A DNA stretch of 64,000 nt from an uncultured Methanolobus sp. (GTDB lineage Archaea; Halobacteriota; Methanosarcinia; Methanosarcinales; Methanosarcinaceae). The position numbers were made by a program, and so were the translations under genes. The first letter of the stretch is position 1; every line of letters begins with the position of its first letter. The DNA is taken from NCBI GenBank assembly GCA_963675495.1, contig OY776215.1, positions 1,824,001-1,888,000 of the forward strand. The letters are read 5' to 3'. Below are positions 24,348 to 30,540 of the stretch, piece by piece. The notes beneath the pieces are model-generated. The model searched no databases. It was not told the origin of the DNA and was given only the letters and a program-made list of their open reading frames with translations.

Positions 24348-24551
24348 CTAGTTATTGAGTAAATATACAAGCAAGCTACCTATCACCCATCCAAGTGGGT
24401 AGAGTATAGCTCTTTTAGGTGTTTGATTTAATTCCCCTAGTGTTTCCCACAAACCTCTGTACTTGTGTGCTTTATACTTTTTAAGATAAAAAGGATATAG
24501 TGCTACAAATGTCATGATAGTGGTGCTAACTATTACTGTTCCTGTATTCAT
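24348..24551 (-). CDS. Small membrane protein, paralog of 25944..26147 (candidate immunity)
   Basis: Shares LYPFYLKKYKxHKYRGLWETxGE..TPK.AI..PL.W with the paralog. Confidence 0.7.
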   Translation of the reverse strand: MNTGTVIVSTTIMTFVALYPFYLKKYKAHKYRGLWETLGELNQTPKRAILYPLGWVIGSLLVYLLNN

Positions 24552-24769
24552 GATTTTGCCTTTCTTTTCCCTATTAGTACCATCCCTATGACAAACCCAA
24601 TTCCAACAAGAATTCCAGTACGTATTCCATTCATTAGATTATGAGACAGGTATCCTAATAATATGCATACAATAAGGATTGTAATGAAATACAAAAATCG
24701 TTCTTTTATCAGAGTTTTTTCCATCTTAATCATCTTTCTCATTTCCATTAATCTTAAAGCTGGATTCAT
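24548..24769 (-). CDS. Small 2-TM membrane protein
   Basis: Two hydrophobic helices and a basic tail; ATGA overlap with the next gene. Confidence 0.6.
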   Translation of the reverse strand: MNPALRLMEMRKMIKMEKTLIKERFLYFITILIVCILLGYLSHNLMNGIRTGILVGIGFVIGMVLIGKRKAKS

Positions 24770-24784
24770 TGTATCACGTATCTT

Positions 24785-25837
24785 CTAGATCAATATCCAC
24801 AATCCAAGTAAAATTAGAACAATTCCGCTAACCAGTTTTACATGCTTCCGATAATCACGTATGCTTTTTGACAAGGTGTATCCTCCTATCAATCCAACTC
24901 CAACAAAAGGTGTCAATACACCTAAACTAAAAACAAGTAGTAAAGACAAATCACCTATTGTTCCCTGACTAACTGTTTTATTTAATAGAACTAAAAGCAT
25001 GGGTAAAGTACATGGCACTTTTACTAAAGAAAATAGTACTCCTAATAAAAATAATCCTCCTACTGTGCTAGCATGCTTTCTAGCAGTGTTATGAAAAAAG
25101 TCCTCCAGTGACAATGGTGCTTTTAAAAGCCCTACCAAATACAATCCAATAACGATAACTATGATTCCTGTAATTGAAGAAAAAACTTCGATGTTTGGCA
25201 TTGATTTTTTGAACACGATTAATCCAATACCTATCAAAAGATACGAAGTAACTAATCCAATACCAAATATAGTTGCCCTTGTTATTCCATTGCGGACAGA
25301 TTCACTGGTACCCGCGGTAAAACTTAAAAGAAATCCAAGTATTGCCATTAAACAGGGGGATAAGCCTGCAAAAAGACCCAATGAGTATGCAAATGGAATA
25401 TTCAAATTTGCACTAATGAATTCATCATCATGTTCGTTTTCTTTTATGTTTTTGATTGTGGACTCTGAAATATTTTCCTTATTATTTAGGTACTCATTTA
25501 TTGATTTTTTTATTCTATCTTCATTAATTTCGTCTTTGGGGATTTTTGTTTCATTATTTATGACAATAGCTGGCACTTCACGAAAATCATATTGTTCCCA
25601 TCGGTTAAATCCTTCAACAGTCATTACATCAGTTCTTATGATATGTATTTTTTCGTATTTTGCATCTATTTGATTAATTACAACGTCAATTTTTTGACAA
25701 TCATTGCACCCAGTTTGATAGAAGTATTCAATATCAACTGATTTTGCAAATGCAGGGGAAATTCCAGATATAAGCACTAATAAGATTAAAAAAATTAAAC
25801 CAAATTTATTCACCTCTATCATTTTTTTTATCTCCAT
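24785..25837 (-). CDS. Thioredoxin-like domain fused to CcdA/DsbD-type membrane domain
   Basis: Signal peptide, FYQTGCNDC (CxxC), then GLSPCL and KVPCTLP transmembrane cysteines. Confidence 0.85.
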   Translation of the reverse strand: MEIKKMIEVNKFGLIFLILLVLISGISPAFAKSVDIEYFYQTGCNDCQKIDVVINQIDAKYEKIHIIRTDVMTVEGFNRWEQYDFREVPAIVINNETKIPKDEINEDRIKKSINEYLNNKENISESTIKNIKENEHDDEFISANLNIPFAYSLGLFAGLSPCLMAILGFLLSFTAGTSESVRNGITRATIFGIGLVTSYLLIGIGLIVFKKSMPNIEVFSSITGIIVIVIGLYLVGLLKAPLSLEDFFHNTARKHASTVGGLFLLGVLFSLVKVPCTLPMLLVLLNKTVSQGTIGDLSLLLVFSLGVLTPFVGVGLIGGYTLSKSIRDYRKHVKLVSGIVLILLGLWILI

Positions 25838-25943
25838 GTACTAATATCGCATTAACAAGCTAGCAAAGCTACTGCTATTTTGCTTTAATATCTTTCTGAT
25901 AGCAGCTTAACAATAAAAATATTAATCCACTATGTGTGTAAAT

Positions 25944-26147
25944 TTATTTATAATATGCACTAAGTAAGGTACATATAAACCACACAAGTGGAAAGATAAT
26001 AGCATTTTTAGGTGTCTTGTACATTTCTCCTATAGTTTCCCACAAGCCTCTATATTTATGTCTCTTATATTTTTTGAGATAAAAGGGATATAGTGACAAG
26101 AATGTCAAAATAATAGTACTAACAATCCCTGTTCCTATGTTCGTCAT
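25944..26147 (-). CDS. Small membrane protein, paralog of 24348..24551 (candidate immunity)
   Basis: Clear paralogy; AGGAG RBS upstream. Confidence 0.7.
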   Translation of the reverse strand: MTNIGTGIVSTIILTFLSLYPFYLKKYKRHKYRGLWETIGEMYKTPKNAIIFPLVWFICTLLSAYYK

Positions 26148-26184
26148 TTAAACGCTCCTTGAATTACAATCATCGAGGAAAAAG

Positions 26185-26232
26185 TGCTTCATACATGTTT
26201 GGGGTTTATTTTCTCCCTACATGTAAGAAGCA
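26185..26232. other. Intergenic hairpin directly after the halocin-like precursor gene
   Basis: TGCTTC-a-TACATGT..GGGG / TCCC-t-ACATGTA-a-GAAGCA inverted repeat. Confidence 0.55.
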
Positions 26233-26239
26233 TAAGGCC

Positions 26240-27016
26240 TTAATCACAGAATTCCGAACAAATATATTCAACTGAGTTACTGCTTCCAGATTCACAGAAT
26301 ACATAAAAAACTACTGCGCAAACAGCTCCGCATACAGCTACTGCGGGTCCGGTAGTCATTAAGCAAAACATACCACATGTTGCAAAAGCTGTCAAAGTAC
26401 ACCCACTCCCGTATATGAAATCGTATGCCTCATAACAAGTATCACATTCAATGTAACTGTCAGAGGAACTAGATTTTATGACTCCATCGCCTATGACTTC
26501 ACCGTCTATACTGAGTATGCCTGCGTTATTCTCAATCACACTATTTTTATCCATTCCATTAGTAGTTTCAAAGACTTCGGTTTTGATATAATCTTCACCA
26601 TACTCTGTAATAGTATTACCTACAGTTGTTTTATTCCCGCGAGAAATAAATACGAATTTACCTACTGTATCACTATTTTCAGTATTTGCTGGTATTTCAA
26701 TGATTACTATCTCATCATGTTTATTTTCCTTTGGACTAATTTTTTGAACATTTATTTGATTATACTGTAAATTATATTCCTTATCTCGTAAATCTTTGAT
26801 TGCTCGCCTAGCATCTTCATTTAATGTAACTTGCAGCAATCCACTCAATTGTCCCAATCCTTCTTCTGTTTCGATGTTAAACTCATCTAACAAATTACTT
26901 CCATCAATTGTTGATGTGCCTGTTCTAATAGGTACGCATGCTGTCGCAGGCATTACCATTGCAATCATTATAATCATTGCTACTAGTATTGCGCTACATC
27001 CTGATTTTAAAATCAT
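26240..27016 (-). CDS. Secreted precursor with C-terminal halocin C8-like cysteine-rich domain
   Basis: Signal peptide (..MPATA-C), acidic pro-region, ~70-aa hydrophobic C-terminus with 10 Cys (CDTC...GC...C...C...C...C...C...CSEFC). Confidence 0.7.
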   Translation of the reverse strand: MILKSGCSAILVAMIIMIAMVMPATACVPIRTGTSTIDGSNLLDEFNIETEEGLGQLSGLLQVTLNEDARRAIKDLRDKEYNLQYNQINVQKISPKENKHDEIVIIEIPANTENSDTVGKFVFISRGNKTTVGNTITEYGEDYIKTEVFETTNGMDKNSVIENNAGILSIDGEVIGDGVIKSSSSDSYIECDTCYEAYDFIYGSGCTLTAFATCGMFCLMTTGPAVAVCGAVCAVVFYVFCESGSSNSVEYICSEFCD

Positions 27017-27280
27017 TTATTTCTTACCTCATTTCAGTTTATTTCAAATAAATCCAGAGGCAAGATCACGCAAACTTTAAACAGTATCAAAGCCAACATT
27101 ACTATGCCTCCGGGCGTAAGTGTGGGGTTCAAGTCGATTCTGCAAATTCAGTTTGGACCCCACTCCATAAACATCTATTACTCTCATCATATACATTTAT
27201 TACTACGATGAATATTCATCGATCCGATTAATATTAATCAGTCCGATTAATATTCGCCTTTCTGATTAATGTCAGAAACA
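27017..27280 (-). promoter_or_regulatory. Duplicated control module, copy 1: four 19-bp-spaced palindromic boxes, TATA-like box, two-hairpin leader, RBS
   Basis: Aligns by eye with 30032..30283; boxes start at 27207, 27226, 27245, 27264. Confidence 0.75.
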
Positions 27281-27571
27281 AGGCAATCCGTAAATCTGAT
27301 GGTTCCGGGAGTTGCACTATATGCAACACCGAAGCATAAATTTAATATTTGTTGCACATACTATGATTTTTATTGTTAGTTCACTCCTATACTTTATATT
27401 ATCAATATATTTTTCTAGTAAGGAACTTACTTAAAACAGTACTCCATATTTCAAGCAAGGGCGAAGTTAGGGATTTAACTGAACTTTACTTCAGGCAAGC
27501 AAAATACGTAGAATGTTGATTAATCTTCATGAGTAGTTCATCTGCATGAATCTTCAGAATGGTACAAGAAC

Positions 27572-28383
27572 ATGGACTTCCTTGAGATTTACAGAAAAGA
27601 CGGAGATGATGTTCGGGCTATATACAGGTCCAGGCTCATAATTGAGATACTGCTATCATTAAATGAAGGTAGCAAAACGCTTTCTCAACTGCGCGAAATT
27701 ACCGGGAGTTCATCCCAGTCAATAATACCAAATATCAGGAAACTGGAGTCCTGTCACTTGCTAGAGGCAAAGGAAGATGGATATTGCCTGACCCGGCTGG
27801 GAAAGATTGTAGCATTCAGGACCGCAGATTCCTTCAGTACAATTGGAACGATCAATAAGCACAAACTTTTCTGGTCAGACCATTGCCTCGAAGACATCCC
27901 TGCATCATCATTAAATGAGATCGGTGCCTTTACAATTCTGAAATTGTCAATGATACCAATATAGAACTTTTTAATGTATACAACACCAATCTGAAAATCA
28001 TAAAAGAGGCTGAGCGTGTATTCGGTGTATCATCCGTCGTAACCAAGGAATATGCGGATTCTATATCAGAAAAAATATGTGAAGGAATACCTGTCGAACT
28101 TATAGTTCCTATAGATGTTGCAGAACAATTGAAGCAGGAGCCTTATGTGGAAAAGATCAATGCACTAAAAGATTATGAAAACTTCAAATTAATGGTCATG
28201 GATGAACAAATTAGAGTGGGGCTTATTGTCACCGATAAATCTCTCTCATTGGGCCTGTACAAAAAAGACGGTGTGACCTATGACATCGCAAGTGGCATAT
28301 TCAGCTTTGATCCCACGGCGCTTGAGTGGGGAGGGAGGCTCTTTGAGTATTATAGGGCTCGATCAAGGCTTATAATTATGTGA
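27572..28383 (+). pseudogene. Winged-helix transcriptional regulator (DUF1724/FilR1-like), frameshifted near 27925
   Basis: N-terminal HTH (TLSQLREITGSSSQSIIPNIRKLE); frame switches at GGT|GC CTT TAC AAT and continues to ALEWGGRLFEYYR. Confidence 0.75.
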
Positions 28384-28544: not shown

Positions 28545-29015
28545 TTAATCAATCAAAAGCAGAATGGAAAGCAATAATATGCCTAAGCAGACTCCAACTA
28601 AAAGCGATGTTTTCGTTCTTATTGATGCAAAGTAGCCAATCAAACCACAAATAAGTGTGAAAGGTGCAAAATCAATTATGGTTTTCCAGCGCAACCAATA
28701 ATTAAGACCTGCCATTACAAATTCTGGGTCAAACAGCTCAAAAAGGATTTCAGCATAAATGGAACTAAGAGGAAATAACAGCACTCCGCATAACGTGGCA
28801 ACAACTTTGTTTCCTGTTGTATACCCATAATAGATTAGGAGTACTGATGGAACGCCGAAAATTAATGTTCTAGACAATTGCTGCAGTTCCATGGATATAG
28901 GCATCATAGTTGGTACTAAAAATAACTTATAACCCACTTCCATCAACGCAGATATAAGTGGAATTAACATTATAATTGCTACTGAGCGAATCAATCTTTT
29001 TTGGTTATCCGTCAT
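28545..29015 (-). CDS. Hypothetical multi-pass membrane protein (candidate immunity partner of 29081..30031)
   Basis: About 5 hydrophobic segments; AGGAGG RBS. Confidence 0.65.
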   Translation of the reverse strand: MTDNQKRLIRSVAIIMLIPLISALMEVGYKLFLVPTMMPISMELQQLSRTLIFGVPSVLLIYYGYTTGNKVVATLCGVLLFPLSSIYAEILFELFDPEFVMAGLNYWLRWKTIIDFAPFTLICGLIGYFASIRTKTSLLVGVCLGILLLSILLLID

Positions 29016-29080
29016 CTATCCTCCTGAAAAAAGAAAGGTAGCTTGACCACCTTCCAGATTCTATAAGACAGTTCTATTTT

Positions 29081-30031
29081 TTAACTGCCGACTTTATAGA
29101 TACAGGTTGCATCCTCATCATTGAGAGGACTTGCTACGTAGTTATCAAGGTCACGATTATCATATAATACCCACCAATTCGATAGATCGTTATCAAAAAA
29201 GCCAGCAACCAAATCTTCCGCAGGTTCATATTCATCTGCCACATGTGGGAATGAACTGTCATGATGCACATTTGCAACGACGTCACCGTTACTCATCTCC
29301 CATAACCTTGCATGATATCCACCATTTATTCGATATCTATCATCAGCTACGCCGTCATCCAATATCCAATCATCTTCTGGGTCAGACACATACTGGTCAT
29401 ATTCATATGGATTATCAATCCAATCTTGATCAAGTATCCTTGATTTCACTGCACTTTTATCGGTAGATTCCCACGCTAGGTTTATTGGGTCTTCCCTGCC
29501 ATAGTAACCATTATCTTCTGACCATGTCCACTGTGGATACGCATAACCATAATTCCACCAAGTAAAAGGATCAGTTTGACTTGTTATTACTACAGTTTCC
29601 TGAGTTACAATAACCCTTTCATTACCTTCTTTTAAATCGAAAGATTCTTCGTTCAAGACGATGGATTTTCTTTCTTTAGTATCTATAGGAATTTCACTCA
29701 CTTTCGTGAATTGGTTAATCCCAACTTTATTTGCCAAGTTTTCTCCTGTGTATATTTCTTTAATTTGAAGCTGCTCATTTTCATACTTATAAATTTTAGT
29801 TGATGTAATGTTTACAGTATGGTTTTGCATCCACTTTTCAGTCTGTGCTTGTCTCCATAGCTTTGTTTCCTCATCTACAGTAGTTTCTTCAAGCCACTGC
29901 TTGACTTCTTCTGGCATTTGTTGATCCCTTGATGTCTTTTGGACAGCACCCATTGCCGGTGCAATCGCCATGCTCATAAGCAACATTGTCGCAATCAGTG
30001 TGCTCGTCAGAAATTTTACATTTGTTTTCAT
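29081..30031 (-). CDS. Secreted protein with possible LssY C-terminal-like domain
   Basis: Signal peptide (..IAPAMG-A); C-terminal EDPINLAW...GYHARLW...NVHHD pattern. Confidence 0.6.
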   Translation of the reverse strand: MKTNVKFLTSTLIATMLLMSMAIAPAMGAVQKTSRDQQMPEEVKQWLEETTVDEETKLWRQAQTEKWMQNHTVNITSTKIYKYENEQLQIKEIYTGENLANKVGINQFTKVSEIPIDTKERKSIVLNEESFDLKEGNERVIVTQETVVITSQTDPFTWWNYGYAYPQWTWSEDNGYYGREDPINLAWESTDKSAVKSRILDQDWIDNPYEYDQYVSDPEDDWILDDGVADDRYRINGGYHARLWEMSNGDVVANVHHDSSFPHVADEYEPAEDLVAGFFDNDLSNWWVLYDNRDLDNYVASPLNDEDATCIYKVGS

Positions 30032-30283
30032 TTTATCTTACCTCATTTCTAATTCCCTCAAGAGGCAAGATTACGGAAACCTTAAAACACATCAAAGCCA
30101 ACCATAACCTTGCCTTAGGGCGTTCCGGGGTTCAAGCCGACTCTGCAAATTCAGTTTGGACCATACTCCCGAAATATCTATCACTTTCACCATATACATT
30201 TCTTACTGTGACGAATATTCGTCGATCCGATTAACATTAATCAGCCCGATTAATATTCGTCTTTCTGATTAATATCAGAAGCA
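30032..30283 (-). promoter_or_regulatory. Duplicated control module, copy 2
   Basis: Boxes start at 30210, 30229, 30248, 30267; same leader hairpins and GAAATGAGGTAAGA RBS as copy 1. Confidence 0.75.
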
Positions 30284-30321
30284 AAATAATCCGGGATATT
30301 TTTCATGAATTGTAAAATCAG

Positions 30322-30540
30322 GTGTTTGGATCTCAATTTCAAAATTTAGCAACTGGAAATCACAGACAGGTATCTGTCTTCAAAACGGATGTTGGTAAAA
30401 GTGCTATTCACTGGCATATCAACAAATTAAAAGAAGAAAAAGCAATTCGCTGTGAAAAATATGGCAGGTTCAAAAGGTACTATCCTAAAAGCAATTTTAC
30501 AGTAATTGAGGAAAATAAGATTCCGATATTCTCAGAATGA
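30322..30540 (+). pseudogene. C-terminal remnant of a winged-helix regulator
   Basis: KTDVGKSAIHWHINKLKEEKAIRCEKYGRFKRYY is a recognition helix plus wing; no N-terminal part. Confidence 0.6.

Follow-up and report, generated by a model that had tools for sequence, protein, structure and literature searches.

A putative halocin C8-like archaeocin cluster with a thioredoxin-DsbD partner gene in a Methanolobus-like genome

Five co-oriented genes are arranged head to tail along the minus strand, at positions 24348-27016, of a 64,000-nucleotide (nt) stretch of the genome of an uncultured Methanolobus sp. (contig OY776215.1; this whole stretch is hereafter the window). The first gene encodes a 258-amino-acid (aa) precursor, predicted to be secreted, with a cysteine-rich hydrophobic tail. 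It is followed by a stem-loop, a 67-aa protein with two transmembrane (TM) segments (small67a), a fusion of a thioredoxin (Trx) domain with a CcdA/DsbD membrane core (Trx-DsbD, or Trx-CcdA), a 73-aa protein with two TM segments (2TM73) and a second 67-aa copy (small67b; Table 1). The cluster sits in a low-GC stretch (GC 0.28-0.40 over ~23-30.5 kb, against 0.41-0.48 in the flanks). The original prediction, made from the DNA alone, took it for a self-contained halocin C8-like antimicrobial or signalling peptide system with its own redox-folding enzyme; the hairpin, the gene orientation and the tail of 10 Cys (CxxC...CxxxC) that it described are all confirmed, each at the position given. Profile and alignment comparisons establish the precursor as a divergent subtype of the halocin C8-like precursor superfamily, and the cluster, which occupies a low-GC island in a Methanolobus-like genome, probably serves the production of, and immunity to, a bacteriocin-type peptide (archaeocin).

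The precursor and the halocin C8 family

The hydrophobic N-terminal signal of the precursor ends P-A-T-A, directly before C27. The P-A-x-A-C motif, which has Pro at -4 and A-x-A from -3 to -1, would be no worse a match to a signal peptidase I site than to a lipobox, and the Cys after the signal peptide is absent from several relatives. The pro-region (28-187) is acidic, with 28 Asp and Glu against 15 Lys and Arg. The last 71 residues contain 10 Cys, 8 acidic residues and no basic ones; their first cysteines are C191-x-x-C194 and their last C253-x-x-x-C257. An AlphaFold2 (AF2) model of the precursor (predicted local distance difference test, pLDDT, 77.2; predicted template modelling score, pTM, 0.74) places a confidently modelled alpha+beta domain at 42-177 and tail helices at 186-204, 208-220, 225-243 and 249-253, with a linker of low confidence at 182-184. 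The Ser-rich, low-confidence linker at ~178-187 hints at a possible cleavage site. A Foldseek search of the model against the Protein Data Bank (PDB) returned nothing at E<=0.001, and the best matches of a wide VIA-align search were Z 6.1 (BOK and other Bcl-2-like helical bundles) and Z 5.3 (parts of beta-barrels), where the noise mark is ~8.

Searches with the precursor on its own return little. A related-locus search with this single query gave no match, and a word-indexed homology search found two proteins only, one 92% identical and one of 189 aa that lacks the Cys tail. A profile built from the window precursor, those two proteins and two precursors of the same genus (5 sequences) recovered 106 proteins at E<=1e-3 among 1.84 billion representatives; most are 250-290 aa long and match end to end. 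Twenty-three of 48 scanned members of this set pass the cut-off of TIGR04449, the curated profile used to count halocin C8 homologs, and 4 more match it below the cut-off at E<=0.01. In an alignment of 34 relatives, Tat-signal (twin-arginine) forms included, C191, C194, C253 and C257 never vary, and conservation is at least 90% at C206, C214, C233 and C241; the two remaining window cysteines are relocated. The N-terminal region can also be aligned across the family. The predicted likeness to the halocin C8 domain is borderline when the precursor is scored directly, at 20.9 bits (E 5.3e-4) by hmmscan and 24.6 bits in a six-frame search of the genome against a curated cut-off of 24, and becomes clear through the relatives and their eight shared Cys columns. 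The direct alignment pairs residues 191-255 with positions 1-65 of the 69 in the profile. A second curated profile, TIGR04450, reaches 23.3 bits on one relative of the same tail type (cut-off 27), and for P0001, a protein 92% identical to the precursor, Pfam PF27906 is precomputed.

Cysteine density was also considered as a sign that the tail is distinct, and was rejected: 60 of the 3867 raw open reading frames (ORFs) of at least 100 aa in the genome reach 10 Cys per 71 aa. Many of these 60, judged from their first residues only, look out-of-frame or like Fe-S proteins. It is the conservation of its cysteines, not their density, that sets the tail apart from chance.

Elsewhere in the genome, a weak TIGR04449-like stretch at G000:C1:1511910-1512089 (locus L002; 13.8 bits, E 0.3) contains three stop codons and would be either a chance match or a decayed second halocin gene.

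TIGR04449 has matches in 3 of the 61 close relatives, in 13 of the 392 genomes that represent the class (6 of 49 genera) and in 20 of the 401 genomes that sample the phylum. Relatives of the cluster are found in Methanolobus, Methanococcoides, Methanohalophilus and Methanosarcina. In public annotation, Methanosarcina sp. WWM596 and Methanolobus vulcani have classical-type proteins under the name 'halocin C8-like (bacteriocin) domain-containing protein', and relatives of the window type in Methanolobus sp. WCC5 and M. psychrotolerans are named 'hypothetical protein'. The earlier remark that no characterised example in methanogens is known agrees with our literature searches, which found none, although halocin C8-like proteins had been annotated in Methanosarcina and Methanolobus vulcani. 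The apparent novelty, by sequence comparison, lies in a halocin C8-like subtype that is divergent, has its immunity apparently outsourced and comes with a CcdA-type partner of its own; it belongs to a wider family of Cys-rich precursors that share a leader.

The halocin C8 family was reportedly expanded substantially by Makarova and colleagues (mBio, 2019), to diverse archaea and some bacteria. A more recent preprint, in the part accessible to us, counts 82 archaeal and 26 bacterial homologs by the TIGR04449 gathering threshold, and says that of the proteins encoded next to them none has been characterised (10.64898/2026.07.27.741052). Neither thioredoxin nor DsbD is mentioned in that part of the preprint, and among the literature matches listed none holds both halocin and DsbD or CcdA. 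Because the curated models miss the window subtype and several other tail types, censuses based on the TIGR04449 threshold undercount such systems. Two contigs bear on the taxonomic range. A 4.7-kb contig of a metagenome-assembled genome (MAG) assigned to a WOR-3 bacterium (L149, GC 0.41) carries a precursor with a tail almost identical to that of the archaeal genome G086, together with a frameshifted Trx-DsbD ortholog. It looks like an archaeal contig mis-binned in a bacterial MAG, which bears on the transfer of halocin C8 into WOR-3 suggested in the accessible text of the preprint (10.64898/2026.07.27.741052). Similarly, a Methanosarcina-like cluster is found on a contig with the title Proteiniphilum (L146, GC 0.33).

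Table 1 Features of the cluster and its surroundings (positions in the window)
Feature	Position	Strand	Description
Precursor, 258 aa	26240-27016	-	Signal 1-26, pro-region ~27-187, Cys-rich hydrophobic tail 188-258 (nt 26243-26455)
Stem-loop + U-tract	26179-26232	-	Terminator-like or attenuator-like; directly 3' of precursor stop codon
small67a, 67-aa 2-TM protein	25944-26147	-	Candidate cognate immunity protein
Trx-DsbD fusion, 350 aa	24785-25837	-	Signal/anchor, extracytoplasmic Trx (C44-x-x-C47), 6-TM CcdA/DsbD_2 core (C162, C276)
2TM73, 73-aa 2-TM protein	24548-24769	-	Candidate orphan immunity gene
small67b, second 67-aa copy	24348-24551	-	Candidate orphan/variant immunity gene; overlaps 2TM73 stop codon
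5' regulatory region + leader of precursor operon	27017-27330	-	
FilR1-like helix-turn-helix (HTH) regulator	27572-28383	+	Divergent, frameshift-split; Pfam HVO_A0261_N, FilR1_middle
Second operon, possibly co-regulated	28545-30330	-	316-aa secreted protein, 156-aa 4-TM protein, duplicated 5' region
316-aa secreted protein	29081-30031	-	No known domain
156-aa 4-TM protein	28545-29015	-	After 316-aa gene

Tail types, small membrane proteins and the Trx-DsbD enzyme

By their tails, which have 8-14 Cys, the precursors that adjoin the Trx-DsbD enzyme can be sorted into about eight types. Between types within one genus, the first 35 residues are up to 89% identical, while pro-region and tail both drop to ~25%. 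Types were assigned by composition-corrected BLAST with strict limits, and a C-Y-x-x-C sub-type (4 members) was split from type T1 by eye. A precursor is called paired here when the small TM family named lies downstream of it. The window-type tail is paired with small67 in 4 of 4 genomes, T4 with family S3 in 4/4, T5 with S4 in 3/3, T6 with S6 in 3/3 and T2 with S5 in 3/5. The classical halocin C8 type is paired with the 2TM73 family in 4/8 (within 1.7 kb), and the C-Y-x-x-C sub-type, otherwise merged into T1, with S7 in 3/4. A small membrane family of its own follows six of the eight tail groups (the C-Y-x-x-C sub-type counted), and T7 (3 loci) and T8 (1 locus) have no recurrent small family within 1.7 kb. 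A metagenome scan with an alignment of the window type (8 sequences) found six loci, five of them distinct, with small67 directly downstream in all six; one of these has two small67 copies and one has a precursor that lacks its tail. Tail-less precursor remnants of 189-190 aa are represented by P0002 and L159:1325-2108, and at least the one in L159 is followed by small67.

The two window copies, small67a and small67b, are 64-68% identical and are the only ones in the genome. A loop, YPFY(L/I/V)(K/R)KY...G.W, is conserved in the family, its I and V variants coming from the metagenome loci. Pfam and other profile scans matched small67 to no known immunity family, and the protein atlas gave unnamed clusters only. 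A complex prediction of the tail (186-258) with small67 scored 0.00 against a mark of 0.32, a result that counts neither for nor against pairing. In two loci titled Methanohalophilus, small67 stands as an orphan beside fragments of Trx-DsbD (L071:10521-10724 and L073:10668-10871), and immunity-like genes appear to outlive their toxin genes. In the window itself, small67a is a candidate cognate immunity gene, judged by its behaviour across loci. 2TM73 and small67b look like orphan immunity genes; we read 2TM73 in this way because its family elsewhere accompanies the classical type of precursor, of which the window genome, though it has 2TM73, contains none.

The fusion enzyme matches Pfam DsbD_2 at 43.7 bits (cut-off 24.9) and Thioredoxin at 23.5 bits, exactly its cut-off of 23.5. 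C44 and C47 of the Trx domain and C162 and C276 of the membrane core are invariant in 18 orthologs. Following an N-terminal signal/anchor, the CxxC-bearing Trx domain would lie outside the membrane. When the fusion protein was searched against the class, the scores were bimodal: orthologs above 340 bits, at 51-66% identity, are present in 29 of 392 genomes and in one more where the gene is split, all of them in the family to which the window belongs, and the other full-length matches are a paralog, present in most genomes, at ~30% identity and no more than 129 bits. The window genome also encodes such a ~30% paralog fusion and a plain CcdA.

The recurring linkage of precursor and enzyme that had been proposed was borne out by the synteny survey. 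An ortholog lies within a few kb of the precursor in 10 of the 13 TIGR04449-positive genomes of the class, and 26 of 31 near-full-length orthologs in the fetched Methanosarcinaceae loci have a Cys-rich precursor (at least 6 Cys in the last 75 residues) on the same strand within 5 kb. Many of these enzyme-adjoining precursors are not detected by TIGR04449. Outside the class, none of 17 halocin C8 loci has a Trx or DsbD match within ~7 kb; 11 of the 17 have a GC content of 0.60-0.66 and are presumably haloarchaeal. The Trx-DsbD hidden Markov model (HMM) is sensitive enough to detect the distant plain CcdA of the window genome at 51 bits.

A 415-aa protein with the same conserved leader, and only 4 Cys in its tail, adjoins a Trx-DsbD ortholog (L064:4107-5354); the leader may serve cargo besides Cys-rich peptides. 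The precursor-like protein P0028 (361 aa), recovered with the five-sequence profile, has an extra N-terminal region that weakly matches a DCC1-like thiol-disulfide oxidoreductase (22 bits, cut-off 27.8) and may represent a second, independent tie of the precursor family to thiol chemistry.

The conservation of the enzyme brings in an alternative that we consider rather unlikely, in which the peptide is still a toxin and Trx-CcdA is a resistance device that reduces the disulfides of self or incoming peptides at the surface, with the small membrane proteins aiding export, insertion or processing. The CcdA/DsbD family consists of known outward reductases, all four relay cysteines are invariant, and one conserved enzyme for many unrelated tails fits a generic chemistry such as reduction better than it fits specific folding. 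The enzyme is also absent from the sampled high-GC halocin C8 loci (0.55-0.66, presumably haloarchaeal). The same alternative must accommodate three halocin-positive genomes from which the enzyme is missing, and small TM families that co-vary with tail type and persist as orphans, as immunity proteins do and generic helpers do not.

The reductase-type character of the partner enzyme can also be turned against a weapon altogether. The precursor would then be a redox or metal protein retained at the surface, its Cys tail kept reduced by Trx-CcdA, and possibly a sink for oxidants or copper in aerotolerance, comparable to the periplasmic reductases fed by CcdA or ScsB. The anaerobic habitat and the lack of a protease or exporter in the cluster suit this proposal, and the conserved post-signal Cys is missing from some members, so that surface chemistry may vary. 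We nonetheless judge it improbable. The precursor is homologous to a proven bacteriocin family, the tails have diversified strongly, in one-to-one pairings with small membrane proteins, and the distribution is patchy and island-like (domain in 13/392 genomes, enzyme ortholog in 29/392). The retention of small67 beside precursor remnants without a tail is likewise hard to reconcile with a redox role.

Regulatory elements and neighbouring genes

The stem-loop behind the precursor gene spans 48 nt (26185-26232) and is followed by CUUUUU. Its minimum free energy (MFE) is -24.7 kcal/mol, with a z-score of -2.7; 1 of 200 shuffled sequences folds as well. A stem-loop with a U-run was present at the same place in all seven window-type loci folded, in differing sequences with z-scores from -0.5 to -4.8; two of the seven are near-identical.

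Upstream of the precursor, the 5' region contains direct repeats spaced by 19 nt and an inverted repeat at 27193-27272. A BLAST comparison aligned 27124-27281 with 30127-30284, upstream of the gene for the 316-aa secreted protein, at 87% identity over 158 nt. Aligned with each other, 27017-27330 and 30032-30330 have 86% column identity as far as the ribosome-binding site, which suggests that the precursor operon and the 316-aa operon share regulation. The 316-aa family is present in 7 of 61 relatives searched, all of the same genus; the protein has no Pfam domain, and the protein atlas gave unnamed clusters only.

A three-frame reading of the divergent FilR1-like regulator gene places a frameshift near 27920-27960, leaving ORFs of 130 and 84 aa. 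Intact FilR1-like counterparts of 268-278 aa adjoin related loci (L018, L059), and no indel was found at the frameshift in the contigs of three runs (X1, X2 and X4). The X1 and X2 contigs do not differ from the window and may be where it was assembled from; depth in X4, a run of unrecorded kind, is very uneven and peaks over the precursor gene, a pattern by which genes should not be ranked. FilR1-type regulators were found at the window cluster and three other loci. Among further accessory genes of related loci, four scanned proteins exceed the cut-off for LolA_like, two loci have Yip1 membrane proteins that exceed theirs, and a MacB/FtsX-type ATP-binding cassette (ABC) set lies near the locus of one relative (L005).

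An adjoining transcription regulator, and a 5' region common to a second secreted-protein operon, would also suit a released peptide that acts as a signal in kin recognition, quorum sensing or development, with the small membrane proteins as its receptors or modulators; a precursor that has its own small membrane partner is as compatible with a signal as with a toxin. We hold this to be very unlikely. The regulator is frameshifted here, the 67-aa 2-TM proteins lack any signalling domain, and partner genes orphaned from their precursor are typical of immunity, not of receptors. The characterised member of the family, moreover, lyses cells, according to the accessible part of the preprint (10.64898/2026.07.27.741052).

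Interpretation and comparison with known systems

On balance we favour the reading of the locus as a bacteriocin-type production and immunity cluster, and a number of results weigh against it. The direct hmmscan score of the precursor lies below the TIGR04449 cut-off, and for the three relatives nearest to it within the same tail type the results are 11.6 bits, 14.6 bits and no match. Pfam Hac8_like_N (HalI, PF22862) matched neither the precursor (E<=1) nor the genome (E<=10); it matched 0 of 49 relatives at E<=0.01, and the model may be narrow. The window precursor has no Tat (RR) motif, and Tat-bearing relatives exist. T4-T8 share mainly the leader with the window precursor and have no halocin profile match. 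The pairing counts overstate independence, as the compared genomes are kin and several loci are near-identical.

The genetic setting adds to these points. Among 11 proteins of the cluster and its flanks Pfam identified no ABC transporter, and none of the cluster genes encodes a protease by the same scan. The LolA-like lipoprotein common in related loci is not part of the window cluster either, and the term 'self-contained' in the original prediction is doubtful on all three counts. Five of the 31 Trx-DsbD orthologs have no Cys-rich precursor nearby. In three TIGR04449-positive genomes (G103, G086 and G233) no ortholog was detected anywhere in the assembly, the best matches (E 1e-12 to 1e-17) being at the level of the paralog; given these three genomes, the enzyme is not obligatory.

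The chemistry assigned to the enzyme carries the last of these points. CcdA-type proteins are known reductases, through which reducing power passes outward. Under reducing laboratory conditions Methanosarcina acetivorans could dispense with ccdA and ccmG, as stated in the part of the study available to us (PMC9084895). With the relay reductive and these genes dispensable, disulfide formation would have to proceed in an anoxic habitat with no evident oxidant. The 'redox-folding' role first proposed stays hypothetical: the enzyme may work by reduction, isomerisation or inactivation instead, and isomerisation, or keeping the cysteines reduced, is more likely than the making of disulfides. This role is the weakest step of the mechanism, and resistance is a serious rival for it.

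Starting from the observed homology, conserved cysteines, gene linkage and co-variation, we infer each step of the following scheme. The precursor would be exported by the Sec route and cut after A-x-A, its acidic alpha+beta pro-domain shielding the hydrophobic helical tail. A protease from outside the cluster would cut the Ser-rich linker at ~178-187 and release an anionic, membrane-active peptide of ~70 residues with 10 Cys. The extracytoplasmic Trx domain, fed from the cytoplasm through the CcdA core, would act on the thiols and disulfides of the tail, with reduction or isomerisation the most likely means of letting the correct cysteines pair. A relay running towards oxidation, and drawing on a cytoplasmic disulfide such as CoM-S-S-CoB, is pure speculation. 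The membrane of the producer would be protected by small67a, and 2TM73 and small67b would protect against related peptides from neighbours. As a leaky terminator, the hairpin could keep precursor mRNA in excess over that of the downstream genes.

A broader proposal, possible and more tentative, is that the halocin C8 type is one cargo of a wider, undescribed toxin platform of the Methanosarcinaceae. One leader and one Trx-CcdA would serve at least eight unrelated Cys-rich (8-14 Cys), membrane-active warheads, with an immunity protein for each and orphan immunity genes collected in islands, and methylotrophic and aceticlastic methanogens would have in this platform their main means of peptide warfare. 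As far as our literature searches show, no antimicrobial peptide of a methanogen has been characterised. The cluster and its relatives offer a concrete, genetically tractable hypothesis for antagonism among methanogens, which could shape which of them dominate sediments, digesters and guts. They also raise a chemical question, namely what a CcdA-type relay does for a peptide of 10-14 Cys without oxygen.

Among characterised systems the closest is halocin C8 itself. The mature peptide, HalC8, has 10 Cys, the number found in the window tail. It derives, in Natrinema sp. AS7092, from the precursor ProC8, which yields HalI and HalC8, and both systems have a secreted precursor of ~260-280 aa with a hydrophobic C-terminal part of ~70-76 residues (10.64898/2026.07.27.741052, from the accessible part of the preprint). 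They further share eight Cys columns, an alignable N-terminal part that is similar in size and a divergent regulator gene upstream. The signals differ, that of the window being of the Sec type with A-x-A and that of halocin C8 a Tat signal, and the window cluster has neither a Pfam Hac8_like_N match nor the halT ABC transporter genes. Window-type loci instead have separate small membrane proteins that co-vary with the tail, suggesting outsourced immunity. Their dedicated Trx-CcdA, in an anaerobic host, has no counterpart in the 17 of 17 loci outside Methanosarcinia. With respect to the curated models, the precursor type matches TIGR04449 over nearly its full length, while its scores stay at or under the cut-offs of TIGR04449 and of TIGR04450, the model for Gram-positive fusions of C8-like immunity protein and bacteriocin.

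Bacteriocin operons with dedicated thiol-disulfide oxidoreductases are known from sublancin 168, with bdbA and bdbB, and from pediocin-type systems with PedC. Those oxidoreductases are DsbA/DsbB-like oxidases or Trx-like accessory proteins, and they occur in aerobes or facultative bacteria. The arrangement of a structural gene, an immunity gene and an accessory redox enzyme for the cysteines of the peptide is common to them and the window cluster, whereas the window enzyme belongs to the CcdA-type relays, which normally work reductively, and its host is a strict anaerobe. In its architecture this enzyme resembles the CcdA-CcmG/ResA and ScsB relays, with a DsbD_2 core bearing two membrane P-C cysteines and an extracytoplasmic CxxC Trx domain. 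Its ortholog group, unlike those relays, is patchy and tied to Cys-rich precursors, not to cytochrome c maturation.

Polymorphic toxins offer a final parallel. In contrast to them, only a leader of ~35 residues is conserved here and pro-region and tail diverge together, so that there is no fixed delivery domain with swapped tips. The likeness lies in the variable C-terminal warheads, each with its own small membrane protein encoded downstream, and in the partner genes that stand without a toxin.

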